A stretch of 46,248 bases of DNA. Source: a virus. The position numbers and the translations under genes were made by a program. The stretch spans positions 1-46,248 of IMG/VR virus record IMGVR_UViG_3300032163_000001; one strand, given 5' to 3'. Positions 3,616 through 25,690 of the stretch are shown piece by piece (position 1 is the first letter of the stretch; every line of letters starts with the position of its first letter). The notes beneath the pieces are model-generated. The model made no database searches, was not told the origin of the DNA, and saw only the letters and a program-made list of their open reading frames with translations.

Positions 3616-4077
3616 ATGAATTATATTGGATTAGACATATCGTTTACTGGAACTGGGTTAATAGTAATTGACGAAAGTTCTAGTATTTTATATGAAGAAT
3701 TGATATCATCGAATTCAGAAGAGAATATTGAATGTAGAATTATAGATATAACTGATCGAGTTTTCTCAAAAATTGAAAAATATAAAAGCTCTAAAATTTG
3801 TATAGAAGGGTTGTCATTTTCATCAAGAGGACAATCTACTTTAGATTTAGCTGGTTTACATTTCTATGTAAGAACGACTCTATTTAGAGATGATTATATT
3901 TTTTATATTATTCCTCCCACTACGTTGAAAAAGTTTGTAACTGGCACAGGACGCTGTCAGAAAAACTTAATGTTATTAAAATGTTATAAGAAATTTGGAA
4001 TAGAATTTGATAACGATAATTTATGTGATGCTTATTGTTTAGCTCGATATGGACTAGAAAATTACAAAGGGAAATAA
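3616..4077 (+). CDS. RuvC-like Holliday junction resolvase
   Basis: N-terminal YIGLDISFTGTGLIVID matches the RuvC/YqgF motif I (hhGhDxG...G.hh.D). C-terminal CDAYCLARYG resembles the RuvC terminal DAADALAIA motif. Confidence 0.55.
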   Translation: MNYIGLDISFTGTGLIVIDESSSILYEELISSNSEENIECRIIDITDRVFSKIEKYKSSKICIEGLSFSSRGQSTLDLAGLHFYVRTTLFRDDYIFYIIPPTTLKKFVTGTGRCQKNLMLLKCYKKFGIEFDNDNLCDAYCLARYGLENYKGK

Positions 4078-4079
4078 TT

Positions 4080-4553
4080 ATGAAAAAAGTTACTGTAAGT
4101 AAATTAATAGAAAAATACATTGGAAAAGTTTTTGAAGATCTGGAACAAAAATATCCAGGTTTATATCCAGATTTATATACAGGAAATATTGAGAAACAAA
4201 CACTACAAAATGACTATTTTAGACAGGTTTTATTCACTACTAAAAATCTTCAATTGGTTGTGATGTGTTTACAACCAGGAGAAGAAATTGGAGATGAAGT
4301 TCATCAAAACGTAGATCAGTTTTTTAGAATTGAGGAAGGTGAAGCAAAATTTATTTTTAATGAGAAGAGTGAATATATTGGACGTGATGGAGATGCAGTT
4401 ATAGTCCCACAAGGAACCTTCCATAACGTGATTAATATTGGGAAGAATCAATTGAGATTATATACTCTTTATTCCCCACCAAATCATCCTAAAGGTACAA
4501 TTCATAAGACTAAATCTGAAGCTGAACAAGCTGAAAAGACCAACACTGTTTAA
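4080..4553 (+). CDS. cupin-fold protein
   Basis: G(x)5HxH-like segment (GEEIGDEVHQNVDQFFRIEEGE...GDAVIVPQGTFHNVIN) typical of a cupin barrel. The ATG at 4080 with an AAGGG ribosome-binding site is preferred over the track start at 4035. Confidence 0.45.
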   Translation: MKKVTVSKLIEKYIGKVFEDLEQKYPGLYPDLYTGNIEKQTLQNDYFRQVLFTTKNLQLVVMCLQPGEEIGDEVHQNVDQFFRIEEGEAKFIFNEKSEYIGRDGDAVIVPQGTFHNVINIGKNQLRLYTLYSPPNHPKGTIHKTKSEAEQAEKTNTV

Positions 4554-4595
4554 GAATTATAAGTATCCTTTCTAAAAATTTAACAGAGGTTATGT

Positions 4596-6809
4596 ATGGA
4601 AATTGCAAGTAGATTTATTTTAATTGAACATCTTGCTAAAAGAAGTGGACGGCATTTTGATCTTCGCTTCCGAAAGCCAAATTCTAAAGATTGGGATAGT
4701 TTTGCTACGAAAAAAGAAATGCCTCCCACAAAGAAAATTATGCTTATAAGAACAACGATCCATACAGAAGAAGAAGCTTTATTCGTTGGAAGAATTCCAG
4801 AAGGTTATGGTGCGGGAATTTTGAAAAAGGTTGACGAAGGTGAATGTATAATCAAGAAGTACAAAAGTTACCATATTTTAGCAGAGTTTAAAGGAAAGAA
4901 ACTTAATGGAATTTATCATTTCTTTCAACCAAAAGGTATAGAAGAGAAGTTTGGAAAGAACTCGTATTTATTTTTTAAAGGGAGAGAAGAAGAAATGCAA
5001 GAAAAAGTTAAACTCTCTGAAAATGCTCTTTCCGTAGCGAAGAGCAGATATTTCATGGATAATGAAGATTGGGAAAGTTTTTCTCAAAGGGTCGCTGACC
5101 CAATAGCAGATGTAGAAAAAGAAAAAGAAAAATATAGAGAAAAATTTTCTGAGATGATTTATCGCATGAATTTCTTAGGTGGTGGTAGAATTCTGAGAAA
5201 TTCTGGAAGAGCAAAAGGAACATTACTTAATTGTTATCATTTACCGTGTGGAGATTCAATTGAAGAGATTGGTGAGTTTATTAAAGATTCTTTAATTTTA
5301 TGGGCTGAAGGCGGAGGAGTTGGTTGTACTTTTTCTACCCTTAGACCACACGGGAGTCCAATTAAAGGAAAAGGGGGATATTCATCAGGAGCAGTTAGTT
5401 TTATACAAGCAATAGATTCAGTATCTAAAGTAATAGAAAGTGGGGGGTCGAGGAGAGCTGCAGCACTTGCTTCTTTAAATATTTCACATCCGGATATATT
5501 TGATTTTATTGATGCAAAGTTAGTTGATGGAAGAATTTCTAGTTTTAATATTTCTGTAGAAGTTAATAATGATTTTTTAGATGCTGTATCTGAAGATAAA
5601 GATTGGAATCTAGAATTCGGTGGAAAGTTTTATAAGACAGTTAAAGCTAGAGAGATTTGGGATAAAATTATATTGAATATGATTGAACATGCTGAACCAG
5701 GAATATTGAATATGGATAACTTAACAGAGAATAATTCTTGGTATTTTGATCCAGTAACTGGAGTTAACCCGTGTGGTGAAGCTATATTAGCTCCATATGA
5801 ATCATGTGATCTTGGTTCTTTAGTCCTTTCTAATTTCGTGGATAAAGATGGAAATACTGATTGGAATAAATTAAAAGAAACAATATTTTTGGGTGTTAGA
5901 TTTTTAGATAATGTTCTTGATGTTAATAAGTTTACTATTGAAAAGATAAATGAGAAAAGTAAGAATGGTAGAAGAATTGGTCTTGGAGTTATGGGTTTAG
6001 CAGAATATTTATTTAAGAAAAAAGTAAGGTATGGTTCTGAAGAATCATTAAAGTATATAGAAGAGACAATGGCATTTATTAGAGATAACTGTTATTTAGC
6101 ATCAGTTGAGTTAGCTAAAGAAAAAGGATCTTTTCTAAAATTTGATAAAGATAAATATCTACAATCTTCCTTCGTAAAAACCCTTCCTGATTTTATCCAA
6201 AGCAAAATCTATAGAAATGGGATAAGGAATGTGACATTACTCGCTATAGCGCCAACGGGTACGATCTCTTTACTTCCAGAAGTTACAAGTTCTATTGAAC
6301 CATTGTTTGCAAAGTCGTTTATTCGGAGAGATCGAGCTGGAAATAGAATATATATTCACCCTCTTTATGAGAGACTAATTTTAGAAGGAAAAGGAAGAAT
6401 TCCTGAATGGTTTGTAGACACTTATGATTTGAAGCCGGAAGACCATTTTGCAGTTCAAAGAGTAGTTCAAAAATTTGTTGATGGAGCAACGAGTAAAACT
6501 ATAAATCTTCCAAAGGGAATAACTAAAGAGGAACTTAGTAGTCTTCTTTTAGATAATCTTAAATACTTAAAAGGCGTTACAGTTTACGTTGATGGAAGCA
6601 GGTCTGGGCAGATTTTAAATCGTATGTCAGAGGGACAAGTTCTTTCTTACTTAAAAAAGAATGGCAAGATAATTTCACATTCTTTAGAAGAAAGAGATAC
6701 TGAATGTATACCCTGTTCTAGAGGAAGAGAAACTAAAACTTTAGATTTTAAAGATATAAAGGAAAAAGTTTTGAAAGATATTATTTTTAAACGAGGACTA
6801 GAAAAATGA
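4596..6809 (+). CDS. ribonucleotide reductase catalytic subunit (class II-like) with an additional roughly 130-aa N-terminal domain
   Basis: RNR catalytic-core motifs are present: LNCYHLPCGDSIEE, GGGVGCTFSTLRPHGSPI, VNPCGEAIL (NxCGE thiyl-radical site). There is a C-terminal CxxC and no nrdB-like gene nearby. The N-terminal 130 aa (RHFDLRF...IPEGYGAGIL) are not part of a normal RNR. Confidence 0.75.
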   Translation: MEIASRFILIEHLAKRSGRHFDLRFRKPNSKDWDSFATKKEMPPTKKIMLIRTTIHTEEEALFVGRIPEGYGAGILKKVDEGECIIKKYKSYHILAEFKGKKLNGIYHFFQPKGIEEKFGKNSYLFFKGREEEMQEKVKLSENALSVAKSRYFMDNEDWESFSQRVADPIADVEKEKEKYREKFSEMIYRMNFLGGGRILRNSGRAKGTLLNCYHLPCGDSIEEIGEFIKDSLILWAEGGGVGCTFSTLRPHGSPIKGKGGYSSGAVSFIQAIDSVSKVIESGGSRRAAALASLNISHPDIFDFIDAKLVDGRISSFNISVEVNNDFLDAVSEDKDWNLEFGGKFYKTVKAREIWDKIILNMIEHAEPGILNMDNLTENNSWYFDPVTGVNPCGEAILAPYESCDLGSLVLSNFVDKDGNTDWNKLKETIFLGVRFLDNVLDVNKFTIEKINEKSKNGRRIGLGVMGLAEYLFKKKVRYGSEESLKYIEETMAFIRDNCYLASVELAKEKGSFLKFDKDKYLQSSFVKTLPDFIQSKIYRNGIRNVTLLAIAPTGTISLLPEVTSSIEPLFAKSFIRRDRAGNRIYIHPLYERLILEGKGRIPEWFVDTYDLKPEDHFAVQRVVQKFVDGATSKTINLPKGITKEELSSLLLDNLKYLKGVTVYVDGSRSGQILNRMSEGQVLSYLKKNGKIISHSLEERDTECIPCSRGRETKTLDFKDIKEKVLKDIIFKRGLEK

Positions 6810-7510
6810 AATGTGTATATTGTCAAAGAAGTAAAGCAAAATATAAGTTAAAGAATGGAAAATGGTGTTGTTGTAGACACCATAATCAGTGTCCAGCTAG
6901 TAAAGAAATTTTAAGTAACAGTAACAAAGGTAAGAAACATTTGTGGAGTGAGCAAGGAAGAATAAATTTTGCTGAACTAACGAAGATCAGAGTTCCATGG
7001 AATAAAGGAAAAAATTTATCTCAAGAACATTTGGAACACTTATCGAAGAGCCATTTAGGGCAAGTTGCTTGGAATAAAGGAAAGATCGGGGTATACTCTA
7101 AAGAAGTAATAGAAAGTATAAGTGAAAAAGTAAAAGAACTCTGGAAAAATCCAGAATTTGTTAAAAAAATTTATAAATCTCTAGCTCATGGAATGAACAA
7201 GGAAGAAAGTAAAATAAATGAAATTACAGAGAATTTAGATTATAAATATACTGGAGATTTTTCATTTATGATTGGTGGAAAAAGTCCAGACTTTACCAAT
7301 TTTGAGAAAAAGAAAGTAATTGAATTCTTTGGTTCCTGGTATCATGGAGAAGAATACAGGAGAAGAATATATAATGATTTTAAGTCAAATAAAGACCATG
7401 AAATAGAACGAATAGAACACTTTAAAAAATATGGTTTTGATTGTTTAATAATTTGGGGAGACGAACTTAAAAGTAAAGATCTATTAGTACAAAAGATAAA
7501 AAATTTTTAG
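6806..7510 (+). CDS. homing endonuclease-like protein: N-terminal Cys zinc finger, NUMOD3-like repeats, C-terminal PD-(D/E)XK-like domain
   Basis: CVYCQ...GKWCCCRHHNQC cysteine cluster. Repeated WNKGK/SxEHxxK motifs. C-terminal PDFTNF...EFFGSWYHG. The ATGA overlaps the RNR stop. Confidence 0.5.
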   Translation: MKCVYCQRSKAKYKLKNGKWCCCRHHNQCPASKEILSNSNKGKKHLWSEQGRINFAELTKIRVPWNKGKNLSQEHLEHLSKSHLGQVAWNKGKIGVYSKEVIESISEKVKELWKNPEFVKKIYKSLAHGMNKEESKINEITENLDYKYTGDFSFMIGGKSPDFTNFEKKKVIEFFGSWYHGEEYRRRIYNDFKSNKDHEIERIEHFKKYGFDCLIIWGDELKSKDLLVQKIKNF

Positions 7511-7718: not shown

Positions 7719-8117
7719 ATGAAACTAGATAATGAACGAACAGAACTCTTACTGAAAGAGTATGATGAGCAACGAATGGCTCTAAAGAATATGATTAGTG
7801 ATCTTGAGAAAATAAAAGTGAAATTAGATATATTGTTTCCCGAAAGACTTGATGCAAGGTATATAAGACTTTTTGAAGAGAGAATGAAGTCTATATCAGC
7901 TTTATTTCAAATACTTCTTGAGGTTAGAAAAGAGATCTTAAAGAGTGTTAGAGATGAAATTGAGATTAGGAGAAAAGTAGACATTGAAAAAGAACTAGAA
8001 GATTCTCTAGAAAATATTAGAGACCTCGCGAAGAAAGTAGAAAAGTTCCAGAGGGATGAAAAATTACTACTAGAAGAACAAAATAATAGTGAAAAACCAT
8101 TGGAGGTAAGTTCATGA
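7719..8117 (+). CDS. coiled-coil hypothetical protein
   Basis: 132 aa rich in E/K/L heptads with a ribosome-binding site. Confidence 0.4.
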   Translation: MKLDNERTELLLKEYDEQRMALKNMISDLEKIKVKLDILFPERLDARYIRLFEERMKSISALFQILLEVRKEILKSVRDEIEIRRKVDIEKELEDSLENIRDLAKKVEKFQRDEKLLLEEQNNSEKPLEVSS

Positions 8118-9301
8118 CTAATGAAATAGAGAATGATGAACAAGAGAGTCAAGTAAAAGATGATGTGAAAGAAATTTTGGAATCTACAAAAATAGATAAA
8201 AATCGGTTAAGTAATATAGAACCAGTTGATGTAGAAGCAATAAGTAAAGATGATCAAAAAATACAACAACTCTATTCTGAATTCTCTTCGTTTTTAGAAA
8301 CAAGTGCTGACATTATATCTGACAGTGGTGTTAAAACTGTTATCCCAACTGGGATCGATTTATTAGATGCGATCTTAGGTGGAGGTTTAGCTTGTGGTAC
8401 AATGTGTATAATTGTAGGACCTCCTGGTGGTGGTAAAACTATGTTAGCTGCACAAATAGGAGGTTCGATTCAAGTAGAATTTCCAGGGTCTATAGTTGCA
8501 TATTTAGATTCAGAAGAAGCTATTACAACTACTAGATTGTATAACCTTGGTGTAAAAAGACCGAAAATAAAACCATATTCAGATGTTACAGTAGAAAAAG
8601 TATTTAAATTTTTAGAAGGACTTTGTTTATTTAAAGAACAGAAAAAAATAATAGATATACCTTCAATTGTTGTCTGGGATTCGATTGCTAATACTTTGTC
8701 TCAAAAAGAACGAGAAGCTGATGATATTAATAGTGTTATAGGATATAAAGCAAGAATGTTGTCAATTCTAGTTCCAAAGTATGTATCTAAACTTTCGAAA
8801 TATAACATATGTTTAGTAGCTGTGAATCAATTGAGAGATTTGATCCAAATAGGAAATTTTACTCCTGCTAAAGAAATGAAGTTTATGCCTACAGGTAAGG
8901 AAATGCCAGGTGGTAATATCTTGAAATTTAATGCGTTTCAACTCATATATATGAAAATAAATTCTATTTTAGATTCAAAAAAAGAAGGATTTAGCGGAGT
9001 AGTTGTAGAACTAAAGTGTGTAAAAAATAAGTTATTCAGTCCGAATATTCCTATTCAACTTGTTGGCAACTTCTTAATTGGTTTTAGTAATTTTTGGAGT
9101 AACTATAAATTTCTTGTGGAGAATAAAAGACTAAGTAGTGGCGCATGGAACTATCTTATTACTCTCCCAAGTAAAAAGTTTAGAACTCTTGATGCTGAGA
9201 ATTTGTATAAAGATGATCAAGTGTTTAAGCAAACTTTTGATGAAGTTGTAAAAGACACTATACAAAAAGAAATAGTCGATAAGAACGTTGTCCCAGTATA
9301 A
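8114..9301 (+). CDS. RecA/UvsX-family recombinase
   Basis: TGIDLLDAILGGGLACGTMCIIVGPPGGGKTMLAAQ aligns to the RecA Walker A region (TGSLSLDIALGAGGLP.G.IVEIYGPESSGKT). VAYLDSEEA and SIVVWDSIAN match the RecA downstream motifs. Confidence 0.7.
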   Translation: MTNEIENDEQESQVKDDVKEILESTKIDKNRLSNIEPVDVEAISKDDQKIQQLYSEFSSFLETSADIISDSGVKTVIPTGIDLLDAILGGGLACGTMCIIVGPPGGGKTMLAAQIGGSIQVEFPGSIVAYLDSEEAITTTRLYNLGVKRPKIKPYSDVTVEKVFKFLEGLCLFKEQKKIIDIPSIVVWDSIANTLSQKEREADDINSVIGYKARMLSILVPKYVSKLSKYNICLVAVNQLRDLIQIGNFTPAKEMKFMPTGKEMPGGNILKFNAFQLIYMKINSILDSKKEGFSGVVVELKCVKNKLFSPNIPIQLVGNFLIGFSNFWSNYKFLVENKRLSSGAWNYLITLPSKKFRTLDAENLYKDDQVFKQTFDEVVKDTIQKEIVDKNVVPV

Positions 9302-12192: not shown

Positions 12193-12853
12193 CATTAGTG
12201 AGATAACTAATATTAATGAAATAATAGAAAGTCCTACTAACTTCCAAATCCATAGTGATGTAAAGAATCTAGAACTTTATACTGAAGATTATCCCTTTAA
12301 ACTTTCTCTTAGAATTAAGAACTTTACAGACGAATCTAGCTATGTAAGGTTTGTTAGAAATTGTGAGAAGTTATTTAGAACCTGTTTAGAATATAGATTA
12401 TGGAAGAACTATATAACAGATGTTTTGAGATTTAATACATGTATGATTACTAATGAAAAAATGGATGAGGTCAACATTGAAATTCACCACCATGTTCCAT
12501 CGTTGTTTATTTTAATGAAAACTTTAGTTAATGAATGTATAGATACCACTTCACCTTTTTCAACATTTGATATTTGTCTTAAAGCTATAGAAGTACATTT
12601 TTCTAATAAAATTGGATTTATTCCTTTACTTAGTAGTATACATGAAAAGTTTACCAATGGATATTTAGATATTCCAATTGAACTTATAAAAGGTAACTAT
12701 AAAGAATTTTTGAGTTCGTATGCTAAATTTATATCTGAGGAAGATATGGATGTAATTAATAAACGATTAGCTACTAATTTTCAGAACTATAATGCAACTA
12801 ACTGGAAAAAAGATGAATACCCTGGAATTGAAAATGCTAGAACGAATTTGTAA
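12176..12853 (+). CDS. hypothetical protein
   Basis: ORF with a GAGGAG ribosome-binding site before the ATG at 12176. The track start at 12164 is also possible. Confidence 0.4.
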   Translation: MEEVNNISEITNINEIIESPTNFQIHSDVKNLELYTEDYPFKLSLRIKNFTDESSYVRFVRNCEKLFRTCLEYRLWKNYITDVLRFNTCMITNEKMDEVNIEIHHHVPSLFILMKTLVNECIDTTSPFSTFDICLKAIEVHFSNKIGFIPLLSSIHEKFTNGYLDIPIELIKGNYKEFLSSYAKFISEEDMDVINKRLATNFQNYNATNWKKDEYPGIENARTNL

Positions 12854-13508
12854 TTATGGGTGTGGACAAGTAGCTAAATACCAATTTAAGAATGGTAAAT
12901 GGTGCTGCAGTCAGAAGTGGCAGTTTTGTGAAGGGATAAAAAAGAAAATAAGTGAGAAAAATACTGGAAAAGTTCGAACTTTAGAAGCTAGAAAAAAATT
13001 ATCTCAAAGTCACTTAAGTCAAAAGTCACGTAAAAAAGGTAAAACTTACGAGCAATTTTATGGAGTAGAGAAAGCAAAAGAAGTTAAAAAGAAGTCAAGT
13101 GAAAGTCATAAAGGAAAACCCGTAAATTTATCTGAAGATGGAAGAAAAAGAAAAATAGATTGGATGAAAAATGGAGGTTCTGTTTATATAAATTCGTTCA
13201 ATAAAAATCCATCAAGTCAAGAGATTGATCTTAGGAAAATAGTTTTAGAACTATATGTAACTGCCAAACCCCAGTACAAAGTTCTAAACTATTCTATAGA
13301 TATAGCTTTAGTTGAGTATAAAATATCTATTGAGTATGATGGTTGGTATCATTTTGATTGTCAAGAACATGTAGATTATCACAAAAAGAGACAAGAAGAA
13401 ATTGAAGGAGAAGGTTGGAAGTTCTTAAGATATAACATTTTTCAACCATTTCCAATAAAAGAACAAGTTGAAAGAGATATACAGAGGTTAAAATGTCAGT
13501 TACAATAG
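12813..13508 (+). CDS. homing endonuclease-like protein, paralogue of 6806-7510
   Basis: Same architecture as 6806-7510: CNYGCG...GKWCCSQKWQFC, KKLSQSHLSQ NUMOD3-like motif, C-terminal IEYDGWYHF. The start is ambiguous between 12792, 12813 and 12834. Confidence 0.5.
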   Translation: MNTLELKMLERICNYGCGQVAKYQFKNGKWCCSQKWQFCEGIKKKISEKNTGKVRTLEARKKLSQSHLSQKSRKKGKTYEQFYGVEKAKEVKKKSSESHKGKPVNLSEDGRKRKIDWMKNGGSVYINSFNKNPSSQEIDLRKIVLELYVTAKPQYKVLNYSIDIALVEYKISIEYDGWYHFDCQEHVDYHKKRQEEIEGEGWKFLRYNIFQPFPIKEQVERDIQRLKCQLQ

Positions 13509-16461: not shown

Positions 16462-17913
16462 GTGATTAAATTTGAACAACTGGGACAAAAGTCGTGGAAG
16501 TTGTGTAATGATGATCAGTGTATAGAAACGCTTGAACTTTCTTCTTCCTCCATCACTAACAAGTTCTCTATTGTTACTTCATTTATTGAGAATGTTTCTA
16601 AAAGTGTTGGAGATGAATTTGACCAGTGGCTAGTTCAATTTTTGAATGTATATAAGATGGCGGATGAGAAGAGATTTTTAGTGGTAGAAGAAAATATACC
16701 TCAGATGAAAAAATTTGTTGACTCTTATATAGATTCTAAAAATGTAAATTTTAGCCAGTTTGTTGATATGAGTAAGGCGAAAAAAACTAGCATCTTGTTT
16801 TATCCAGAAGAAATAGAAAAGATTATTAGATCGTCAAGTTATCTAAAAGTATATTCGTTAGTTTCGAATTCTGAAGGACTTAAATTAGATAGTAGATTGC
16901 ATAAAAAAGTTTATAATAAGTTAGTTTCTGATCTTCTTGAAGCAGACACTGTTTTTAAAGTGTTTAACATTGTTAAAACTAAAACTTTTAGATACAATAT
17001 TTCTGATAAGTATATGTGGGATTATATTAAAATGATACAGTGTAAGTCAATAGACATATATGCTGTAGAGATTTTTAATTTTATAATGAGCAGTATCTTT
17101 ACTTTATGTGATGAAAATAGAAACCCAATTTCTTATTTTATTAGTGTAGTTGATGAATCTGTGAAATGGTTTTTGAGATCAGTATACAAAGGATCTATTA
17201 TTTATGATGATTCAGTGGCTACAGAAGATATTCAAGCGATTCATATAGATAATTTAAGAACGTATACATACAATGATACTATTGGAAGACTAGAAAAAAT
17301 CGCACATGGGAAAATTCATAATGATTTAGAGAGATCAGTTATCTCTACATTTTCTGAAGATAAAGTTGATAAAATCATTCTGGATTTTGAGAAGAGAGTT
17401 TCTAGTGTAGAACATATTTCTCCACTATGTGAATGTTTAACTTTTCCGATTTTATCAATTGTTGCGGGTGTGCCATACGAGCACTTTAAAACTCTAACAC
17501 CAGATCATTGTATTGTTCTTTCAGTTTATCTTCAGTCATTATTGAAGAAAGTTTTTAATGAAGAGTATGAAAGTTTGTTTGATATGTTGAGTTATTTTCC
17601 TGAGAAAGCGTCTGTTGTACATACGACATATAAAATGAAATTATCGAATTTGAAAGATCAATTTCTACCACAGATGAATACTTGTAAATTCTTGAAGTTT
17701 AATGATAAAGTTTATTTACATGAGATTCTATCTTATTTTGTTGGCAGGATTGCTAGAGTAGATTTTATAGATGCTGTTACAGGAAAAGGTTTGGGCGGAA
17801 TTCCTCTTAGTAAAATTGAATCTGATATGATTAAGTTTTACTCTTTGTTCTTCAGTGGAAAATTCGAGAAAGAATTCGAAGAAGTAAAAGTGCTTTTGAA
17901 TAGTGATTTTTGA
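16462..17913 (+). CDS. hypothetical protein immediately upstream of the RNAP genes
   Basis: 483-aa ORF with a GTG start and a perfect AAGGAGG ribosome-binding site. Its stop overlaps the beta-prime reading frame. Confidence 0.45.
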   Translation: MIKFEQLGQKSWKLCNDDQCIETLELSSSSITNKFSIVTSFIENVSKSVGDEFDQWLVQFLNVYKMADEKRFLVVEENIPQMKKFVDSYIDSKNVNFSQFVDMSKAKKTSILFYPEEIEKIIRSSSYLKVYSLVSNSEGLKLDSRLHKKVYNKLVSDLLEADTVFKVFNIVKTKTFRYNISDKYMWDYIKMIQCKSIDIYAVEIFNFIMSSIFTLCDENRNPISYFISVVDESVKWFLRSVYKGSIIYDDSVATEDIQAIHIDNLRTYTYNDTIGRLEKIAHGKIHNDLERSVISTFSEDKVDKIILDFEKRVSSVEHISPLCECLTFPILSIVAGVPYEHFKTLTPDHCIVLSVYLQSLLKKVFNEEYESLFDMLSYFPEKASVVHTTYKMKLSNLKDQFLPQMNTCKFLKFNDKVYLHEILSYFVGRIARVDFIDAVTGKGLGGIPLSKIESDMIKFYSLFFSGKFEKEFEEVKVLLNSDF

Positions 17914-17944
17914 GAACAAATATAAAACTACAAAAGGGATAATA

Positions 17945-20900
17945 ATGTTAAAATTCTTAGATGTAGAAAAATTCTCAAGAAATCTTTTAGCCGTAACTAA
18001 TACAGAAATGTTTACAAGAACTGGCGAGCCGCATACACAGGGACTATTCTCCGAAGCTATTTTTGGATCTATTGGAAGTTTAGATAGGAGACAAAGGTAT
18101 TCTTACATTGATTTAAATATAAAGATAATTCATCCAGAGGCCTATAGAATCCTGATACAATTAGATAGGAAAGTAGAGAAATTCTTTTCCACAGAAAGTT
18201 TGTTCTCTTCAGATAAATCAGGAAAGTTAATTGAGTCTGAAGATGGAATAACTGGCATCTCTGAATTTATTAAGATATTTCCAAAGATTTCTTTTAGAGG
18301 TGAGACTTCGGAAAGAGAGAGACTTATTAAAGTGCTTAAAGAGTCATATACCTCTAATACGTTGTTTGTTTCAAAACTCCCTGTGATACCTCCAGATCTT
18401 AGGCCAGCATATACTGACGCTAAAGGTACTAGAATAATTGATCCTTTGAACGATTTTTATATTAGAATTTTAAGAAGATCTTTTCAAGTTAGAAGTGCTG
18501 GACCAACTGGAATATTTTCTGATCTTATAAGATATGGTTTACAAAAGTCTATTAATGATTGTGATACTTTTGTTAGGACGAAAATTGGAAAGAAAGGTGG
18601 AGTAGTTAGAGATCAATTACTATCTAAAAGAGTAGATTTTTCTGGAAGAGCTGTTATTACACCAAATCCAAACTTAGCAGTTAATCAAATTGGAGTGCCA
18701 TTAAAATTAGCAGTTAGTTTATTTGAGCCATTTTTACTACACGTTTTGTTATATTCAAATAAAATAAATAAGGAAGAACTAGAAAAAGAAATAGAAAACT
18801 TTTTACATACGAGTTTATCAGTAGACTCTGTGAAAAATGTAATGAAGTCGATTAAAGCTGGTCATGAGATTCCATCTAACCTTTATGAAATCTTTTTTAA
18901 TGCTGCTGAAATGGCTATAGCTGGACGTGTTGTTCTAGCAAAAAGAGATCCAGATTTACATCCTGAGTCTATTAGATCATTCTACCCAGTTTTAACAAGA
19001 GGAAACACTTTAGAAATATGTACGTTACAAGTTGGTGGATTTAATGCAGATTTCGATGGTGATGCTATGGGAGTTTTTCATCCACTAACTAATGAAGCAC
19101 AAGGAGAAGCGAAAGAAAAGATGATGAGACCCCAAACTGGGGTAACTTATAATTCTATAGCTTTTGAACTATCGAGAGAAATGTGTGTAGGTTTGTATTT
19201 ACTAACTAAAAGTGTTCGACCCAAGAATTCTCCTATTCATGTTTCTGAAGAAGATCTAGAAAAAGCTACAGATCCTTATATAGCAGTAGTTTATAGAAAT
19301 AAGAATACTACAATGGGAAAAGCTATTGTAAATAGTTGTTTTCCAGAAGCATTTCCATTTATAGATACTTTACTAACTAGAAAAGTAGCTAATGAGTTAA
19401 TAAATTCAGTTCTAGAAAAACATGGAAATAAACAAGGAGAACAAACAGCATCAAAACTCTCTAAAGTAGGATTTAAATTTGCTACTATAATTTCTCCTAC
19501 GTTGAAATTGTCTGATCTAGAAGTTCCAGATGAGATATATAAATTAAAGGAAAAAATGAAAGGAGTTTCAATTGAACAGGCAAATGTGTTGTTAGAAAGA
19601 ATGAGAAAGATAATGGTAGTTTATTTAAAAGATACAGGATTATATAATTTAGTAGAATCTGGTTCTACTAGAGGTTGGGATCAACCAATGCAAATTCTTG
19701 TAGCAAAAGGAATTATTGCTGATCCAAAAGGTAACCTTTTAGAACCAGTGAAAAGTTCATTATCTGATGGACTTACAACTACAGAATTTTTTAGAGCGGC
19801 TGCTGGTTCTAGGAAAGGAATTATTGATAGGGTTATAAATACTTCAGATACAGGATACTTATCTAGAAAGTTAGCTTATTTTTTAAGTCCAGTAGAAATT
19901 GATCCTTTTGTAAAAGATTGTAGAACTAAAAAGACTTTGTCGTTAAAAATAGATGAAGATTTATCTAGAAGACTACATGGAAGATTTATTGAATATGGTG
20001 GAAAACTTGTAGAATTTGATCCAAATCTATTTAGGACTGGTTCGCAGATAGACTTAAGGACTCCAATATATTGTAAGAGTCCAAGAATTTGTCATATATG
20101 TTATGGGAAATTAGTAGAAAGGCATAAAACTCCTTATGTTGGAATACTAGCAGCACAAATTATTGGAGAAAGAGGAACTCAAATTATCATGAGATCTTTT
20201 CATCTAGGAGTTGCTAAAATAGTTGAGAGAAGTATACTTAAAGAAATTGCAGAAAATGAGCCAATGATATCTCTAGATAAACTATCGTCTTATTTAGTCC
20301 AAAGAGATAATAGATTAACAGCTTTAAAGAACTGTAAAGTGATAATTGATATGAATGATTATGATGTTGGTGATAGTATGGTGGTGGAAGAAGATTCTAT
20401 ACAAGTTAAAAGCTTACTAAGTCAAATTGAGTTTGATGATGTAATTTTTTATTTGATTTTAGATTTTCCATGTAACTTGTATGTAGAGAAGAAAGTTGAA
20501 GAAGGTAAAGAGAGAATTGAATTGTTTTATAAAGAGGGTTCTACAATACTAGACGTGCCAACAGAAGTTACAGAAATGAAACAACAAGTTAACTATGTGG
20601 AAAGACTTATTGGTGGAAAAGAAGTGTTTAAAGACGTTGAACATTTATATCGAAAACTATATAAAGTTTACGCGCCTCTGTCTCCAATGGATTCAGTACA
20701 TTTAGAAATTGTAATATCACAGTGTTTAAGATACAGATTAAATCCTGCTTTACCTGCACGATTAGGGAAGACGTGGGATCCAGTATTGATTAATATAAAG
20801 AAGACAATATTTTCTAGCGGATTCATGCAGGGTTTGGCTTTCGAGAACGTGAACGAAGCTATCAAGGTAGGGTTAATTTCTGAGGAAGAGATTCCACCAT

Positions 20901-20947
20901 CAATTATTGAGAAACTAATGACAACTCCGCTTGTGGGAGCTAAATAA
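17945..20947 (+). CDS. multisubunit RNA polymerase beta-prime-like subunit (unsplit)
   Basis: GLFSEAIFGS matches ERDGLFCARIFGP. VSKLPVIPPDLRP matches LPVLPPDLRP. RVDFSGRAVITP matches RVDYSGRSVI. The catalytic NADFDGDAM motif is present. AAAGSRKGIIDRVINTSDTGYLSRKL is bridge-helix-like. AAQIIGERGTQIIMRSFH is trigger-loop-like. The ATG at 17945 (AAGGG ribosome-binding site) is preferred over the GTG at 17903. Confidence 0.85.
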   Translation: MLKFLDVEKFSRNLLAVTNTEMFTRTGEPHTQGLFSEAIFGSIGSLDRRQRYSYIDLNIKIIHPEAYRILIQLDRKVEKFFSTESLFSSDKSGKLIESEDGITGISEFIKIFPKISFRGETSERERLIKVLKESYTSNTLFVSKLPVIPPDLRPAYTDAKGTRIIDPLNDFYIRILRRSFQVRSAGPTGIFSDLIRYGLQKSINDCDTFVRTKIGKKGGVVRDQLLSKRVDFSGRAVITPNPNLAVNQIGVPLKLAVSLFEPFLLHVLLYSNKINKEELEKEIENFLHTSLSVDSVKNVMKSIKAGHEIPSNLYEIFFNAAEMAIAGRVVLAKRDPDLHPESIRSFYPVLTRGNTLEICTLQVGGFNADFDGDAMGVFHPLTNEAQGEAKEKMMRPQTGVTYNSIAFELSREMCVGLYLLTKSVRPKNSPIHVSEEDLEKATDPYIAVVYRNKNTTMGKAIVNSCFPEAFPFIDTLLTRKVANELINSVLEKHGNKQGEQTASKLSKVGFKFATIISPTLKLSDLEVPDEIYKLKEKMKGVSIEQANVLLERMRKIMVVYLKDTGLYNLVESGSTRGWDQPMQILVAKGIIADPKGNLLEPVKSSLSDGLTTTEFFRAAAGSRKGIIDRVINTSDTGYLSRKLAYFLSPVEIDPFVKDCRTKKTLSLKIDEDLSRRLHGRFIEYGGKLVEFDPNLFRTGSQIDLRTPIYCKSPRICHICYGKLVERHKTPYVGILAAQIIGERGTQIIMRSFHLGVAKIVERSILKEIAENEPMISLDKLSSYLVQRDNRLTALKNCKVIIDMNDYDVGDSMVVEEDSIQVKSLLSQIEFDDVIFYLILDFPCNLYVEKKVEEGKERIELFYKEGSTILDVPTEVTEMKQQVNYVERLIGGKEVFKDVEHLYRKLYKVYAPLSPMDSVHLEIVISQCLRYRLNPALPARLGKTWDPVLINIKKTIFSSGFMQGLAFENVNEAIKVGLISEEEIPPSIIEKLMTTPLVGAK

Positions 20948-21552
20948 TGATTATCTATAAAGCTGAGAATAAAGTTAATGGTAAGGTTTATATTGGTCAA
21001 ACTATTAAGAACATTGATAAAAGAATTTCTGAACATTTAAAATCTGAATATAGTTGTGGTATTGTTTTTCGAAATGCTCTTAAAAAATATGGAATTCAGT
21101 CTTTTGAAATTTCTATTATAGATAAAGGAGAATCTAGAGAAGAACTTAATGAGAAAGAAAAATATTGGATTAAGTTTTATAATTGTAAAGTCCCAGATGG
21201 TTATAATTTGACCAATGGAGGAAATGGAATTATTGGATATATCTTTACTCCAGAGGTTAGAAAGAAAATTGGTGATTCTATTAGAGGAAAGAAAAATCCA
21301 ATTCATTCAGAATGGATGAAAAAGAATAATCCAAATAAGAAACTAGAAGTTAGAGAAAAAATGGGTAGTCCTGGAAAAAGTAATGGAAGATTTGGTAAGC
21401 ACTGGTCCGAAGAAGAAAGAAAGATGATTAGTGAAAAGACAAAACAAGGTATGAAAAATTCAAGAGCTGCGGAGAAAATAAGTAAAAAATGTAAAGGAAG
21501 AATTCCTTGGAATAAGAAACTAATAGAGGCTAACAATGGCAATAAGGTTTGA
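20947..21552 (+). CDS. GIY-YIG homing endonuclease (copy 1)
   Basis: IYKAENKVNGKVYIGQT (GIY...YIG), KYG, EKYWIKFYN...GYNLTNGG. It overlaps both the beta-prime stop (TAATG) and the beta start. Confidence 0.7.
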   Translation: MIIYKAENKVNGKVYIGQTIKNIDKRISEHLKSEYSCGIVFRNALKKYGIQSFEISIIDKGESREELNEKEKYWIKFYNCKVPDGYNLTNGGNGIIGYIFTPEVRKKIGDSIRGKKNPIHSEWMKKNNPNKKLEVREKMGSPGKSNGRFGKHWSEEERKMISEKTKQGMKNSRAAEKISKKCKGRIPWNKKLIEANNGNKV

Positions 21553-24500
21553 AAAATTTCGACTTAATACACAAACTACTGACTCATTACGTTTCGTCTT
21601 AACAGATCAGAATATAGATCGTCCATACGCACTCGTCTACTTCTCTGAAAACTCTACTTTTATTGAAGACTATCCAAAGCTAAATCTTAGACCAGTAGAT
21701 TTTAGAATTGTCCTTGTCCCCTGGTCTATTCTTCCGAAATCTTCATTAACTAAAGATATGAGAGATGAGTATAAGAAACTTGGTTTACTTGCATATTCTA
21801 GTCGATTAAAAAATATGCCAAAAAGAAGAAATATTATAATTGATATTTCTGAATATATCGCAGCGATTGATAAATATCTAAAACCCATTAATTATAGACT
21901 GCGGGCTGGAAGGTATATTATTAGTCTTTTAAAATCAGTAGCTTTTAACTGGTCTAAGGATTATGAACTAGTTTTTGTTTACTCTATAGATATCAACAAA
22001 CCTATCTTTAAAATTATTGATAGAAGAGTATTTCCGATTGTTCGAAATGTAAGAGATGAAGAGTTTCCATTTAAACATTTTATTTTATCTACTATTGGTG
22101 CATCAAGTGTAAGATATCGTCTTTTGATGAAAAATGGAAGTTTCAATTACGCATTTTTGTGGCAGTATATAAAAGCTATTACACAATCTCATAGACCTGA
22201 GATAGAAGACCATGAAACAGTTGATATTCCGAAAGTTGATAAAGACGATGATCCAGAAATAGAGTCAGCTTCACAAGATATAGTAAAACATGTAGAACCA
22301 CATGTTGACAAAAAAAATGTTCAAAAATTCAAATCTTCTATTTCTTCTTTTTTAAAGAAAGATAATAAATCACTGGATAGAGTTATTTCTAAAGAAGTTA
22401 CTCCAGAAGAAAAACAAAAGATTGCTATCGCTTCAATCCTATATAAAAGTACAGGAGACTTACAGAGAGCTAAAAGTATAGCGAAATATATTCCAACAAA
22501 AGATGTTCTTAAAGCTTTGGTAAATGTTGATAAGAAGTATGCAGATGAACTTTTACCGCGAGTTCCAACTCTTTCTACATCAGAACACCCTATAGTTAAA
22601 CTTGTTGATATTCCAGAAATTGTAGAGAAAAAAGTTCCTACTCATATTATAAGTAAGAGACAAATAGATTTTCATGAAAACTTGAAGAAAGATGTTATTT
22701 CTTCGTTCTCTACTCTTGCTAAGAAGAAAGAAGGAGCAGTAAGACTTGAGAAACTTGAAATAGAAGATAAACCAGAGAAAAGGGGAGAAGTAGAGAAGAC
22801 TGATTTAGCAACTCTAAAAGTTGTTCTAAAAGACGAATTTGGGAATGTACATAAAATTGTAATTGACATTCCTAAGATAGATCAATTTGGAACGTTTAGA
22901 GTTAATGGAATAAGACAGTGCCTTTTAAACCAAATAATTTTTTGTCCAATTACGTTTCCAAAAAGGTATGATTCAAGGTTTGAAAGTTTTTACTCACAGT
23001 TTCATATTAAAAGTAAAAGAGTTAGAGAACCATACTATTTAGAAATCTATATGGGTGGAAATATTATTCCATTACTAATTTGTTTAGGTTATGGTTTTGG
23101 ATTTGATAACGTTCTAAAAGACTATGGAATTTCTTACAAAGTTGTAGATAAAAAATCTAAGGAAGAATTTTCTAGTAAAGTAAACGAAGACAAATATATT
23201 ATATTTGAAAAGGTTGATAATGAACTTAAACAAGAATTATGTACTTCTTTTATCAAGGCAAAAGTTTGGAAATATAAAATTGATAAAGAATTTCCTAGTA
23301 GAGAATACTTCAATGATTTAATCATTAAACTAACAGGAAGAATAAATTCTACATATATGATTCAAACTAACATAGAAAATATTATAGATCCAGTAACTAA
23401 ACAAGTTTTATTGAATAAAGGTCAACCAGTAACACTAGATCAAGTTATGAGATATATGGCTTCTAAAGTAGTTACTGGTTATATAGAAGATTTGAATGAC
23501 CTTTCTTCAAGAAGAATAAGAAGTTCTGAAGTTTTAGTTCATTTACTTCAGGAACAAATAGAAGCTGCTTATACTGTTTATAGATCTCAAATTCTTTCTG
23601 GAAATAAGAGCGCTAAACTAGAGATTTCTCCAATTGCACTTATGAAAAAATTTAAACAACAAGAAATAGTTGTTAATATGGAATACTCGAATCCACTAGA
23701 AGAACTAGCTACTTTAACTAAAATTAGTCCAATAGGAAAATCAATAAGCGGTATACCAGGGAGAGAATCTGTACAAGTTAGTGCTAGAGATATTAACGAT
23801 TCGTTTTTTGGTAACATAGATCCTTTAGATACACCTGAAGGGGAAATGGTTGGGATAGTGCAGTATCTTACAGTTGATGCTAATATAACTACAAGTAGAG
23901 GTTTGTTTTTTAAGAAGTCTCTGGATGATAAAGAAAAGTCTGGAATACTTTCAACATCTAGTTCAATGATTCCATTTATTGAAAGAAATGATGGTGCTAG
24001 AGTTTTGATGGCTGATGGTCACTCAAAACAAGCTTTGCCTTTAAAGAACCCGGAATCTCCAATAGTACAATCAGGTTATGAATCAGTTCTCACAAGGTCT
24101 TTATCTGACAACTTTTTAAAACCATCTCCGTGTGATGGAGTTGTCCAGAATATTACAAATGATAGTATTACGATAGAATGTAAAGATGGAGAAAAAGAAA
24201 GTGTTGATATTACACCAAGGTATCTAAGATCTGGAACTGGGAAAGATACTTTAAGTGTTTTTAATGTTAAAGTTGAAAAGAATCAGAAAGTTAGAAAAAA
24301 TCAAATACTTGCAGAAGGTGCGTGTATTTCTAATGGTATGATTTCTTTAGGAAGAACTTTGTGTGTTGCGATAATGAATTATAAAGGATATAATTTTGAA
24401 GATGGAATAGTAGTTAGTGAAAAACTGATAAGTGAAGAAAAATTGACATCTCTGCATGGAGAAGAGATTGATGTATGGGTTTCTGAGAAAGATAGAATTT

Positions 24501-25690
24501 TGTTTGTAAATTCAATTGGGACTGTTACTGAAAGAGGAGATGCTCTTTTAAGAAAGACTAGAGGTGAGATAGAAGAACTTCTTGGTTATACTGAAGAAGT
24601 TGAAGATGAATCAGTTTATATATCAGGCCGAGAATTTATGAAGAAAAGTCCAGGTGGTGTAATTGTAGATATTGAAGTATTTACGAATGTTAAATCAGAA
24701 AGATTTCCATTACTTAAAGATTTAATTGAAAGAACTTCTAGAAAATATAGAAAACCTTCTGCTGATCCATTTACAATTAAAGGAGAAAGGATAAATGGAG
24801 TTTTAGTTCGATTTAGAGTAGAGCAAGAACTAAAGATAACTCTAGGAGATAAGATTTGTAATAGATATGGAAATAAAGGAATTATTTCTTTAATAGAAAA
24901 ATCTGAGTATATGCCTAGAACTCCATGGGGAGAAGAGGTTGATATTATATTGAACCCTCTTGGTTTAGTAAGTAGGATGAATATTGGTCAGTTATTTGAA
25001 ATATATTGTGGACTTATCTCTAAAGCTTTAGCTATAAAAATTGTAGAAAGTAATGACCAAAATAGAGCTGTAGAAGGTTTAAGAAGAACTCTCCCACTTC
25101 TAGATGGAACAACTAAAAAAATATATAGTAGTAGTTTAATACAAAGTATATCTAGACTTACAAAAGCAGATTTTTCTAGACTTATAGATAGTATTACGAA
25201 AACGAAGTTCTTTCCAATTATAATACCTCCATTTCAATCACCTAAACTACAAGATATTAAGAAATGCTTAAAAGCTTTGGGTTTAGATGATGGATATCAT
25301 TTGACATTACCAGAGTTCGCGACTAAAACTTCTGAGAAAGTCCCAGTGGGGTATATGTATATTTACAAGTTAGAACATCTTGGAGAGTTAAAGATTTACG
25401 GTCGTTCTACAGGGATTGTTTCTGGCAAAGTTATGCAACCTGTTTCTGGAAGAAGGTTAGAAGGAGGACAAAAGATAGGAGAAAATGATACCTATTCATT
25501 ATTCTCATATAATTGTCCAATTTTGTTAAGTGAACTCTTTGGGCCATTGTCGGATGATCATACTACAAAGAATGAGATCATTTCTGATATAATTCATACT
25601 GGTGGAGCTAAGTATAGAGAAGCGAAAGTTTCGCCGGTTAAAGATCTCTTGAACGCCTATCTCGTATCTCTTATGTTAGCTCCGAAGTGA
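21536..25690 (+). CDS. multisubunit RNA polymerase beta-like subunit with a roughly 440-aa N-terminal extension
   Basis: QFGTFRVNGIRQ matches GTFVINGTERV. DPLDTPEGEMVG matches PIETPEGPNIG. RNDGARVLMADGHSKQA matches ANDANRALMGANMQRQA. GDKICNRYGNKGIISLI...VDIILNPLGLVSRMNIGQLFE matches GDKMAGRHGNKGVIS...VDIVLNPLGVPSRMNIGQ. Confidence 0.85.
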   Translation: MAIRFEKFRLNTQTTDSLRFVLTDQNIDRPYALVYFSENSTFIEDYPKLNLRPVDFRIVLVPWSILPKSSLTKDMRDEYKKLGLLAYSSRLKNMPKRRNIIIDISEYIAAIDKYLKPINYRLRAGRYIISLLKSVAFNWSKDYELVFVYSIDINKPIFKIIDRRVFPIVRNVRDEEFPFKHFILSTIGASSVRYRLLMKNGSFNYAFLWQYIKAITQSHRPEIEDHETVDIPKVDKDDDPEIESASQDIVKHVEPHVDKKNVQKFKSSISSFLKKDNKSLDRVISKEVTPEEKQKIAIASILYKSTGDLQRAKSIAKYIPTKDVLKALVNVDKKYADELLPRVPTLSTSEHPIVKLVDIPEIVEKKVPTHIISKRQIDFHENLKKDVISSFSTLAKKKEGAVRLEKLEIEDKPEKRGEVEKTDLATLKVVLKDEFGNVHKIVIDIPKIDQFGTFRVNGIRQCLLNQIIFCPITFPKRYDSRFESFYSQFHIKSKRVREPYYLEIYMGGNIIPLLICLGYGFGFDNVLKDYGISYKVVDKKSKEEFSSKVNEDKYIIFEKVDNELKQELCTSFIKAKVWKYKIDKEFPSREYFNDLIIKLTGRINSTYMIQTNIENIIDPVTKQVLLNKGQPVTLDQVMRYMASKVVTGYIEDLNDLSSRRIRSSEVLVHLLQEQIEAAYTVYRSQILSGNKSAKLEISPIALMKKFKQQEIVVNMEYSNPLEELATLTKISPIGKSISGIPGRESVQVSARDINDSFFGNIDPLDTPEGEMVGIVQYLTVDANITTSRGLFFKKSLDDKEKSGILSTSSSMIPFIERNDGARVLMADGHSKQALPLKNPESPIVQSGYESVLTRSLSDNFLKPSPCDGVVQNITNDSITIECKDGEKESVDITPRYLRSGTGKDTLSVFNVKVEKNQKVRKNQILAEGACISNGMISLGRTLCVAIMNYKGYNFEDGIVVSEKLISEEKLTSLHGEEIDVWVSEKDRILFVNSIGTVTERGDALLRKTRGEIEELLGYTEEVEDESVYISGREFMKKSPGGVIVDIEVFTNVKSERFPLLKDLIERTSRKYRKPSADPFTIKGERINGVLVRFRVEQELKITLGDKICNRYGNKGIISLIEKSEYMPRTPWGEEVDIILNPLGLVSRMNIGQLFEIYCGLISKALAIKIVESNDQNRAVEGLRRTLPLLDGTTKKIYSSSLIQSISRLTKADFSRLIDSITKTKFFPIIIPPFQSPKLQDIKKCLKALGLDDGYHLTLPEFATKTSEKVPVGYMYIYKLEHLGELKIYGRSTGIVSGKVMQPVSGRRLEGGQKIGENDTYSLFSYNCPILLSELFGPLSDDHTTKNEIISDIIHTGGAKYREAKVSPVKDLLNAYLVSLMLAPK

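Follow-up and report, generated by a model that had tools for sequence, protein, structure and literature searches.

Phosphoesterase–Reductase Gene in a Large Phage

The 46,248-nucleotide stretch analyzed here (positions 1 to 46,248 of IMG/VR virus record IMGVR_UViG_3300032163_000001; hereafter the window) is part of a large uncultured phage encoding topoisomerase II, a baseplate hub, RuvC, RecA/UvsX, and a Cas4-like nuclease. On its forward strand, a domain resembling the 3′-phosphoesterase (PE) of the DNA repair protein LigD is followed, in the same open reading frame (ORF), by a ribonucleotide reductase (RNR) of the NrdJ type (Table 1). The stop codon of this ORF overlaps the ATG of the next (ATGA at 6806–6809), and a 185,628-bp metagenomic contig encodes a 737-aa protein (P0179) identical to that of the window. 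The first-pass annotation, made from the letters alone, had placed the start of the reductase core at about residue 134, with its ATG at 4994 and the frame open for 399 nt upstream. The residue (M134) and the open frame stand, as 4596–4994 is exactly 133 codons, and the ATG moves by one nucleotide to 4995–4997. The window gene is a real two-domain PE–NrdJ fusion.

Independent lines of comparison agree on the likeness of the N-terminal segment to LigD-type phosphoesterases that had been proposed from a few short motifs. In a hidden Markov model (HMM) search, PF13298 (LigD_N; gathering cutoff 31.1 bits) matches residues 11–109, scoring 38.1 bits (E = 1.8e-9) when the segment is searched by itself and 33.8 bits within the complete protein. 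Among PDB sequences phmmer returns PE proteins only, namely those of Korarchaeum (3p4h, E = 6e-9), Methanosarcina (3p43, E = 3.6e-7), and Methanocella (5dmp), with the Pseudomonas aeruginosa LigD PE (3n9b/2lj6) reaching only E ~0.06–0.07; a profile built from 40 members of the phage PE clade recovers every solved PE structure (E = 1e-39 to 3e-28 against PDB PE chains). The motifs themselves pair as suggested: RHFDLRF (residues 19–25) lies opposite P. aeruginosa LigD HYDFRLE, SFA opposite SWAV, and IPEGYGAG opposite IPQGHYGAG. An AlphaFold2 (AF2) model of residues 1–133 is confident (predicted local distance difference test, pLDDT, 91.4; predicted template-modeling score, pTM, 0.85) and superposes on solved PE structures: Foldseek gives seven significant PDB matches, all of them PEs (for 3p43, template-modeling (TM) scores of 0.81/0.86 and a root-mean-square deviation (rmsd) of 1.7 Å). 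The eight-stranded β-barrel is that of the archaeal stand-alone PEs (Candidatus Korarchaeum cryptofilum 3P4H and Methanosarcina barkeri 3P43) and of P. aeruginosa LigD (3N9B/2LJ6), at TM 0.8 and rmsd 1.7–2.5 Å across these structures, and the window PE has the minimal archaeal size without the bacterial N-peptide. The segment is a divergent member of the PE superfamily, not an equivalog of the bacterial LigD domain. Unlike LigD PE, it is phage-encoded, covalently joined to an RNR, and unlinked to Ku, ligase, or polymerase: we found no ligase, LigD polymerase, or Ku in the fusion protein or the scanned window ORFs, and rejected a LigD/nonhomologous end-joining system in the window for that reason.

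The catalytic core of the PE is preserved. PEs bind Mn through two His and an Asp and the scissile phosphate through an Arg and a His, and alanine mutants of these five residues are dead in bacterial and archaeal enzymes (PMC3082917, PMC8656161). Mapped to P. aeruginosa LigD (PaeLigD) numbering through the 2lj6 alignment, PaeLigD His42, His48, Asp50, Arg52, Ser61, and His84 are kept as window H12, H20, D22, R24, S35, and H56. The window domain thus shares with archaeal and LigD PEs the His-His-Asp triad, the Arg and His ligands, and the Ser and YGAG motifs, but differs from them in having Glu for Tyr88 (E60) and Ile for the structural Gln40 (I10). The Mn-ligand equivalents H12, H20, and D22 do not vary among the 40 aligned sequences, the phosphate-ligand equivalents R24 and H56 are present, and all five positions vary little or not at all among clade members, whether fused or not. 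E, D, Q, or N occupies the Tyr88 position in most of the ~50 closest relatives; PE domains farther off, the ligase-linked ones among them, have Tyr there, or Trp in some stand-alone forms, and keep the Gln. The window PE, as aligned, therefore holds the catalytically indispensable residues but not the full canonical site.

Because the metal triad and both phosphate ligands are kept, the domain is most likely an active 3′-end-healing phosphoesterase, acting on phage DNA ends. The canonical Tyr positions water for the 3′-monoesterase step and matters more for that step, Tyr-to-Ala mutants retaining ~20% of diesterase activity (PMC3082917); the Tyr-to-Glu change would probably shift the balance between diesterase and monoesterase. 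One alternative is that the PE-like domain is inactive in this clade and has become a structural or regulatory N-terminal module of the reductase, in the position of an ATP-cone. The canonical Tyr and Gln are gone, and the domain sits at the N terminus of an RNR that has no ATP-cone. Regulatory ATP-cones are usually attached at just this end of RNRs. Yet the five residues essential in three characterized PEs are invariant or nearly so with or without fusion, and the Tyr-to-Glu change, being common to stand-alone PE genes, is not an adaptation to RNR. We consider loss of activity very improbable.

The remainder of the protein, residues 134–737, is by its sequence a complete class II, B12-dependent NrdJ. 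TIGR02504 (NrdJ_Z) scores 497.7 bits, above its cutoff of 399.95, whereas the class I NrdA/E model (269 bits, cutoff 341) and RTPR (82 bits, cutoff 340) both fall below theirs, and the closest solved relative is Thermotoga maritima NrdJ (1xjk, E = 6e-83). C213, C404, and NPCGE (391–395) align to conserved positions of that enzyme; in RNRs these positions are catalytic, the NPCGE cysteine (C393 here) bearing the thiyl radical alongside a redox-active Cys pair (presumably C213 and C404), and C704-I-P-C707 is presumably the redox shuttle. NPCGE, both active-site Cys, and a C-terminal CxxC are likewise found in T. maritima NrdJ (1XJE/1XJK) and in the NrdJ of Roseobacter N4-like and Pseudomonas phages, from all of which the window protein differs in carrying a 133-aa enzyme domain before the normal N terminus. 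A Pfam scan of the window RNR found no ATP-cone, and no NrdB-like small subunit was recognized in the scanned ORFs of the window, which is 46 kb of a 185-kb contig. Unfused NrdJ relatives of 570–600 aa, 55–62% identical, begin M-x(2-9)-LSENA, that is, at Met134 of the fusion.

Longer forms, of 940–1050 aa, are also common among unfused NrdJs in this phage group. Long NrdJs with intein and homing-endonuclease domains (PF14890 with PF14528 or PF13392) include P0190, P0193, P0231, P0247, P0259, P0261, and P0288, and a 979-aa NrdJ in L023 (5089–8028) has a ~400-aa insertion at the place corresponding to the inteins of the others. Two close unfused relatives, P0176 and P0288, are labeled in NCBI as proteins of Candidatus Aenigmarchaeota/Woesearchaeota metagenome-assembled genomes (MAGs), one on a 211-kb contig; these DPANN-labeled NrdJs either come from phage contigs binned into archaeal MAGs or hint at host range.

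Table 1. Features of the PE–NrdJ gene and its neighbors (window coordinates)
Feature	Positions	Strand	Basis or remark
Full PE–NrdJ fusion ORF	4596..6809	+	737 aa plus stop; single unbroken frame
Putative long-product start signal	4585..4598	+	Shine-Dalgarno-like AGAGG 4585–4589, ATG 4596–4598
PE domain, residues 1–133	4596..4994	+	Pfam, PDB profile, AF2, Foldseek; β-barrel core, residues 3–128
PE active-site motif H12-x7-H20-F-D22-L-R24	4629..4667	+	Alignments; invariant across clade
PE residues H56 and E60	4761..4775	+	H56 = PaeLigD His84; E60 at canonical Tyr88 place
Putative internal initiation signal	4977..4997	+	AAAGGGAGAG (GGAG 4981–4984), 10-nt spacer, ATG 4995–4997 = M134
NrdJ core, residues 134–737	4995..6809	+	TIGR02504, T. 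maritima NrdJ 1xjk, Pfam RNR lgN + lgC
Presumed RNR catalytic residues	5232..5819	+	Cys213 5232–5234, N391-P-C393-G-E395 5766–5780, Cys404 5805–5807; alignment to T. maritima NrdJ
C704-I-P-C707 pair	6705..6716	+	In low-confidence C-terminal tail
RuvC-like resolvase, conserved upstream neighbor of PE	3616..4077	+	Pfam RuvC
Cupin_2 gene between RuvC and PE–NrdJ	4080..4553	+	Not at this place in relatives
RecA/UvsX-like recombinase, conserved neighbor downstream of RNR	8114..9301	+	

Independent Contigs Carry the Fused Gene

We find 12 distinct PE–NrdJ fused sequences, 59–75% mutually identical in the PE part, from different samples and assemblers (JGI, ENA), with the frame open in each, so that the genuine fusion envisaged by the first-pass annotation is borne out. 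Clustering at 90% identity leaves seven full-length fused clusters, the window's and six others (P0180–P0184 and P0013) of 713–744 aa that are 63–72% identical to the window protein. Partial fused genes lie on L002, L003, L007, L008, and L028, and L009 is cut within the PE. Some of the proteins also occur in Logan assemblies. The only JGI annotation of the fused proteins is "ribonucleoside-diphosphate reductase alpha chain," and NCBI and UniRef sources contribute none of them. In most relatives, the two parts are separate genes.

Could a lost stop codon or a frameshift, introduced by sequencing or assembly, have joined two separate genes? Some related short contigs do have clear flaws: a chimeric assembly in L003, an in-frame TGA in L002, and breaks in the RNR frame of L028 and L087. 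Against an artifact stand the identical protein on the 185.6-kb contig, the further six full-length fused proteins, which were obtained from various samples and assemblers, and a junction that is in frame in 11/11 cases though the nucleotide sequences differ. With independent fused contigs keeping the junction in frame, the chance of an artifact is negligible, and we rejected it.

In L002 (1679–1684), a TGA replaces an Arg codon of the RNR that is conserved in all relatives (GGGRIL*NSGR versus GGGRILRNSGR), after which the frame continues; this may be a sequencing error, a mutation, or recoding. In two independent samples (L028/L088, 27–1186; L087, 216–1375, protein P0014), the fused frame breaks after ~250 aa, and an RNR-like ORF resumes ~160 nt past the break, a pattern pointing either to a frameshifted nrdJ in that phage or to one interrupted by an intron or some other insert. 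The 871-bp contig L003 opens with ~130 GC-rich positions that bear no relation to the AT-rich phage sequence after them, and its 3′ end diverges too, so that it looks like a chimeric assembly.

The fused genes appear to share one origin. A neighbor-joining tree of ~80 PE domains unites all the fused ones in a single clade, and a tree of 32 RNR N-terminal regions does likewise for the fused RNR halves; these trees include only the usable fused sequences and carry no support values. Monophyly in both points to one ancestral fusion of neighboring genes, and the case for a single event at the origin of all fused genes is good but not final.

Both halves of the fused gene are kept by purifying selection. 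Within the fused clade, the ratio of nonsynonymous to synonymous divergence (dN/dS) is 0.15–0.32 for the PE part and 0.05–0.28 for the RNR part, values that are rough because dS is ~0.8–1.7 or saturated. The catalytic PE residues are kept in every fused member, which together with the low dN/dS argues that the PE half is maintained by selection within the fused gene. We also considered and rejected an untranslated leader or pseudogene as the nature of the PE segment, given its own Shine-Dalgarno sequence and ATG, its invariant catalytic residues, and its dN/dS.

A Probable Internal Start Predicts Two Nested Products

The first-pass annotation had also raised the idea of two nested products, noting a ribosome-binding site of the reductase's own. 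A purine-rich, Shine-Dalgarno-like sequence is present (AAAGGGAGAG at 4977–4986), and comparison now lends the idea support, as every fused gene with junction DNA (11/11) has GGAG 7–10 nt upstream of an in-frame ATG (7 genes) or GTG (4 genes) at the ancestral NrdJ start, the place at which unfused NrdJs begin, six codons before L(S/N)EN(A/S). The residues encoded by the GGAG-containing codons vary (KGR, RGR, QGR, KGA, KGS), and the motif is spelled with rare codons (in the window, GGG accounts for just 9% of Gly codons and AGG for 14% of those for Arg). Where the junction residue is Val, its codon is GTG in 4/4 genes, though GTG makes up only 10% of Val codons in the window. GGAG occupies these codon positions in 6/6 of the fused genes compared versus 2/79 unfused PE genes; in both of the latter (L016 and L040) the next gene begins right after the PE stop, so that the GGAG there is that gene's ribosome-binding site. 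In the window, an AGGAG-type core precedes 31/41 genes, and GGAG lies 5–14 nt upstream of 51% of real starts versus 3% of internal in-frame ATG/GTG codons. These patterns make it likely that one mRNA yields two nested products, the 737-aa PE–NrdJ and a 604-aa NrdJ.

It is also conceivable, though doubtful, that only the 737-aa fusion is made and that the junction GGAG and ATG/GTG are a decaying relic of the nrdJ start or reflect constraint on the protein. Read-through from ATG 4596 is unhindered, and the GGAG lies within codons of a conserved C-terminal PE motif (FFKG-). Nor is the junction singled out in the window by other signals: promoter-like sites number 13 versus 18.6 expected from shuffled sequence, no terminator-like signal rises above background, and the fold z-score of −1.06 is likewise not above background. 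Such a relic should however have decayed, since synonymous divergence is near saturation, and the GGAG instead persists while the encoded residues change, in rare GGG and AGG codons, with Val always as GTG, and in 6/6 fused against 2/79 unfused genes. Concerning the promoter scans, window ORFs 17903–20947 and 21536–25690 match phage multisubunit RNA polymerase (RNAP) β/β′-type PHROGs, and the phage probably transcribes with its own RNAP, which would make sigma-70-type scans of little use in the window.

Phage T7 gene 4A/4B, the nearest precedent, and Escherichia coli infB make in-frame nested products from an internal Shine-Dalgarno sequence and start. As in those genes, the PE–NrdJ ORF has two starts in the same frame, and the shorter product would lack the N-terminal domain. 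Unlike in T7, the nested products here are deduced from sequence conservation, and the arrangement arose by stop loss between two genes.

A Conserved Phage Module Places PE Upstream of RNR

An exhaustive HMMER search with the PE across 1.84 billion protein representatives gave 559 matches, 59 of them at E ≤ 1e-10, and searching with the PE segment returned mostly stand-alone proteins of 132–138 aa. A metagenome scan yielded 190 PE loci, of which 80 were retrieved and, annotated by local BLAST, form the set for locus analysis. They reveal a conserved module, FEN-like exonuclease – RuvC – PE – small variable genes – RNR – RecA – (dUTPase) – KH protein, in which the small variable genes encode DUF5661, rubrerythrin-like, phosphoribosyltransferase, M48 peptidase, and homing endonuclease proteins. 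RuvC lies upstream of PE in 49/52 evaluable loci. Downstream, 39 loci have an RNR, NrdJ in 35 and NrdG+NrdD in 4, and every locus with 4.5 kb or more of sequence on that side has one. The window keeps the order of the module, with a cupin gene added between RuvC and PE. Contigs of this phage group reach lengths of 100–312 kb.

Several local features accompany this module. A TTG ORF at 4035–4553 would overlap RuvC, which makes ATG 4080 the likelier start of the cupin. The place of the cupin is taken in the closest fused relatives, L089 and L090, by an MTES_1575/DUF559 endonuclease-like gene and in L092 by an unannotated 236-aa ORF; in other relatives RuvC abuts or overlaps PE. No PADLOC defense model is matched by the PE, the cupin, or the neighboring ORFs. 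NrdG+NrdD loci (class III RNR) with enough downstream sequence have two adjacent PE paralogs followed by DUF5661 and a rubrerythrin-like gene. Tandem PE–PE pairs occur in L029 (6004–6774), L055 (5995–6772), L058 (348–1218), L069 (4422–5213), and L052 (1340–2023), and the PE tree places the two copies in sister clades apart from each other, implying that the duplication is old. Elsewhere in the window, at least five ORFs resemble homing endonucleases (NUMOD3, HNH, GIY-YIG; 6806–7510, 12792–13508, 25704–26378, 30833–32095, and 39567–40649), the first of which overlaps the RNR stop codon, and topoisomerase II-like ORFs are scattered at 32100–33893 and 42948–44249 with endonuclease genes between them.

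Origin and Meaning of the Fusion

Taken together, these observations suggest the following course of events. In the ancestor, a separate PE gene would have stood directly upstream of nrdJ, with the nrdJ Shine-Dalgarno sequence inside the last PE codons; the PE stop codon would have been lost once, and the Shine-Dalgarno sequence and nrdJ start retained since. Ribosomes initiating at ATG 4596 would make the 737-aa PE–NrdJ, and those initiating at the retained GGAG and ATG 4995 the 604-aa NrdJ alone, leaving the cell with free reductase, a PE-tagged fraction, and no longer any free PE. The PE would most likely heal 3′ ends of phage DNA by removing a 3′-phosphate or a 3′-terminal ribonucleoside, with the NrdJ half supplying deoxynucleoside diphosphates (dNDPs). 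We put the probability of this explanation as a whole (single-origin fusion, retained internal start, end-healing PE, and a tolerated or mildly useful joining of neighbors) at roughly 0.6.

The architecture of the protein and the company that PE domains keep bear on what the fusion means. The full-length AF2 model (pLDDT 85.7, pTM 0.75) has a PE barrel and a normal RNR, both confident, joined by a linker of ~12 residues (129–141) that is modeled as low-confidence coil and is predicted to be flexible. In other clades, the phage PE is fused to an M48 peptidase with a hydrophobic stretch (L004/L005, L078, L080, and P0025), to DUF5661 (P0016 and P0034), to a rubrerythrin-like protein (P0030 and P0036), or to uncharacterized extensions. 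The partners of PE thus vary with the downstream neighbor and follow gene adjacency, which weakens any "Rosetta stone" argument for a joint PE–RNR reaction. The next-nearest PE domains in the 1.84-billion-protein library occur with ATP-dependent ligase, 2H phosphoesterase, NUDIX/kinase, or SNF2 helicase. As these are end-repair proteins whose PEs keep the canonical Gln and Tyr, they fit nucleic-acid end healing as the ancestral role. PE–NrdJ is therefore best read as a tolerated or mildly advantageous fusion of neighbors and not as evidence of a joint reaction.

The other PE fusions have features of their own. PE–M48 genes (L004/L005, 4007–5272; L078, 6001–7368; L080, 2387–3688) are found on two or more distinct PE-tree branches, the hydrophobic stretch of their products is probably membrane-spanning, as judged from sequence, and in L004/L005 a second M48 gene follows the fusion. 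In P0002, P0015, P0029, and P0036 a conserved acidic linker after FFKGK (roughly M..RVP.G....D.E......L.WS) leads into unrelated C-terminal parts; it may serve for docking or for cleavage.

Alternatively, the fusion may be functionally meaningful, with the PE tethering the reductase to DNA 3′ ends, forks, or repair sites and so providing dNDPs or deoxynucleoside triphosphates locally, or else feeding or protecting the RNR substrate pool by acting on 3′-phosphorylated or 2′,3′-cyclic nucleotides from degraded host nucleic acid. PE lies upstream of RNR whatever its class (35 NrdJ and 4 NrdD+NrdG loci); the neighborhood includes genes of nucleotide metabolism (phosphoribosyltransferase, dUTPase, and kinase-like AAA_28); the fusion has been kept through divergence to ~60% identity; the clade-wide altered active site (Tyr to Glu, Gln to hydrophobic) allows a changed substrate; and glutaredoxin fused to NrdB is a precedent for a functional N-terminal addition to RNR (PMC6187632). 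On the other hand, the same PE is joined elsewhere to unrelated neighbors (M48 peptidase, DUF5661, and rubrerythrin-like proteins), gene order in phage modules stays conserved without functional coupling, and the linker is short and predicted to be flexible. Moreover, the nearest non-phage PEs sit with ligases, 2H phosphoesterases, and kinases, that is, with end repair and not with nucleotide pools. On balance we regard a functional coupling as unlikely. More specific versions have equally slim prospects: the PE might bind primer termini or breaks and so bring the B12-dependent reductase, in heterodimers with internally initiated NrdJ, to where DNA is being made, or the Tyr-to-Glu PE clade might have turned from DNA ends to 3′-phosphorylated or cyclic nucleotides and constitute a new salvage enzyme that works with RNRs of either class.

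Some points tell against the explanation that we prefer, a single neighbor fusion with a retained internal start and an end-healing PE. The window protein scores only 36.2 bits against TIGR02777, the equivalog model of the bacterial LigD PE (cutoff 144), and with the canonical Tyr88 and Gln40 replaced, activity or substrate may differ from LigD PE. The estimates of selection are rough, as noted. At the junction, demands of the protein could account for the conserved Met/Val and Gly-Arg/Ala/Ser codons. The 11 fused sequences, being phylogenetically related, do not amount to independent trials. Finally, PE adjoins RNR in both class II and class III loci, so that a functional link is possible.

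Relation to Known Systems and Significance

Additions to the N terminus of RNRs by fusion with a neighboring or accessory gene have their nearest precedents in the ATP-cone, and in the glutaredoxin plus ATP-cone carried by Facklamia ignava NrdB (PMC6187632). These differ from the PE in that their role in regulation or reduction of the RNR has been demonstrated. Multidomain end-healing and end-sealing proteins (PE with ligase, 2H phosphoesterase, NUDIX/kinase, or SNF2 helicase) contain the same PE domain, but with the canonical Gln and Tyr, and join it to repair modules and not to an enzyme of nucleotide metabolism. We know of no role for a nucleic-acid phosphoesterase in RNR chemistry.

The PE segment found no match by tblastn in 50,697 deposited phage genomes and none among the PHROGs families. 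In the BFVD viral structures nothing matched at E ≤ 0.001, the best being a single 827-aa protein (TMq 0.51), and a full-text literature search gave no description of a PE–RNR fusion or a phage PE. Both domain families are already known. Within the collections searched, three things appear undescribed: the PE–NrdJ architecture, a LigD-type PE belonging to the fixed gene core of a large phage lineage, and the clade-wide active-site variant (Tyr to Glu, Gln to hydrophobic). There is so far no evidence for a new mechanism.

The locus offers an unusually clean comparative record of the birth of a fusion gene by stop loss between tightly packed neighbors, in which the ribosome-binding site and start of the downstream gene have long been retained, predicting two nested products. 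For the biology of RNRs, it presents a new kind of N-terminal addition, and for DNA repair it is a pointer to the use of PE by viruses without Ku, ligase, or polymerase.

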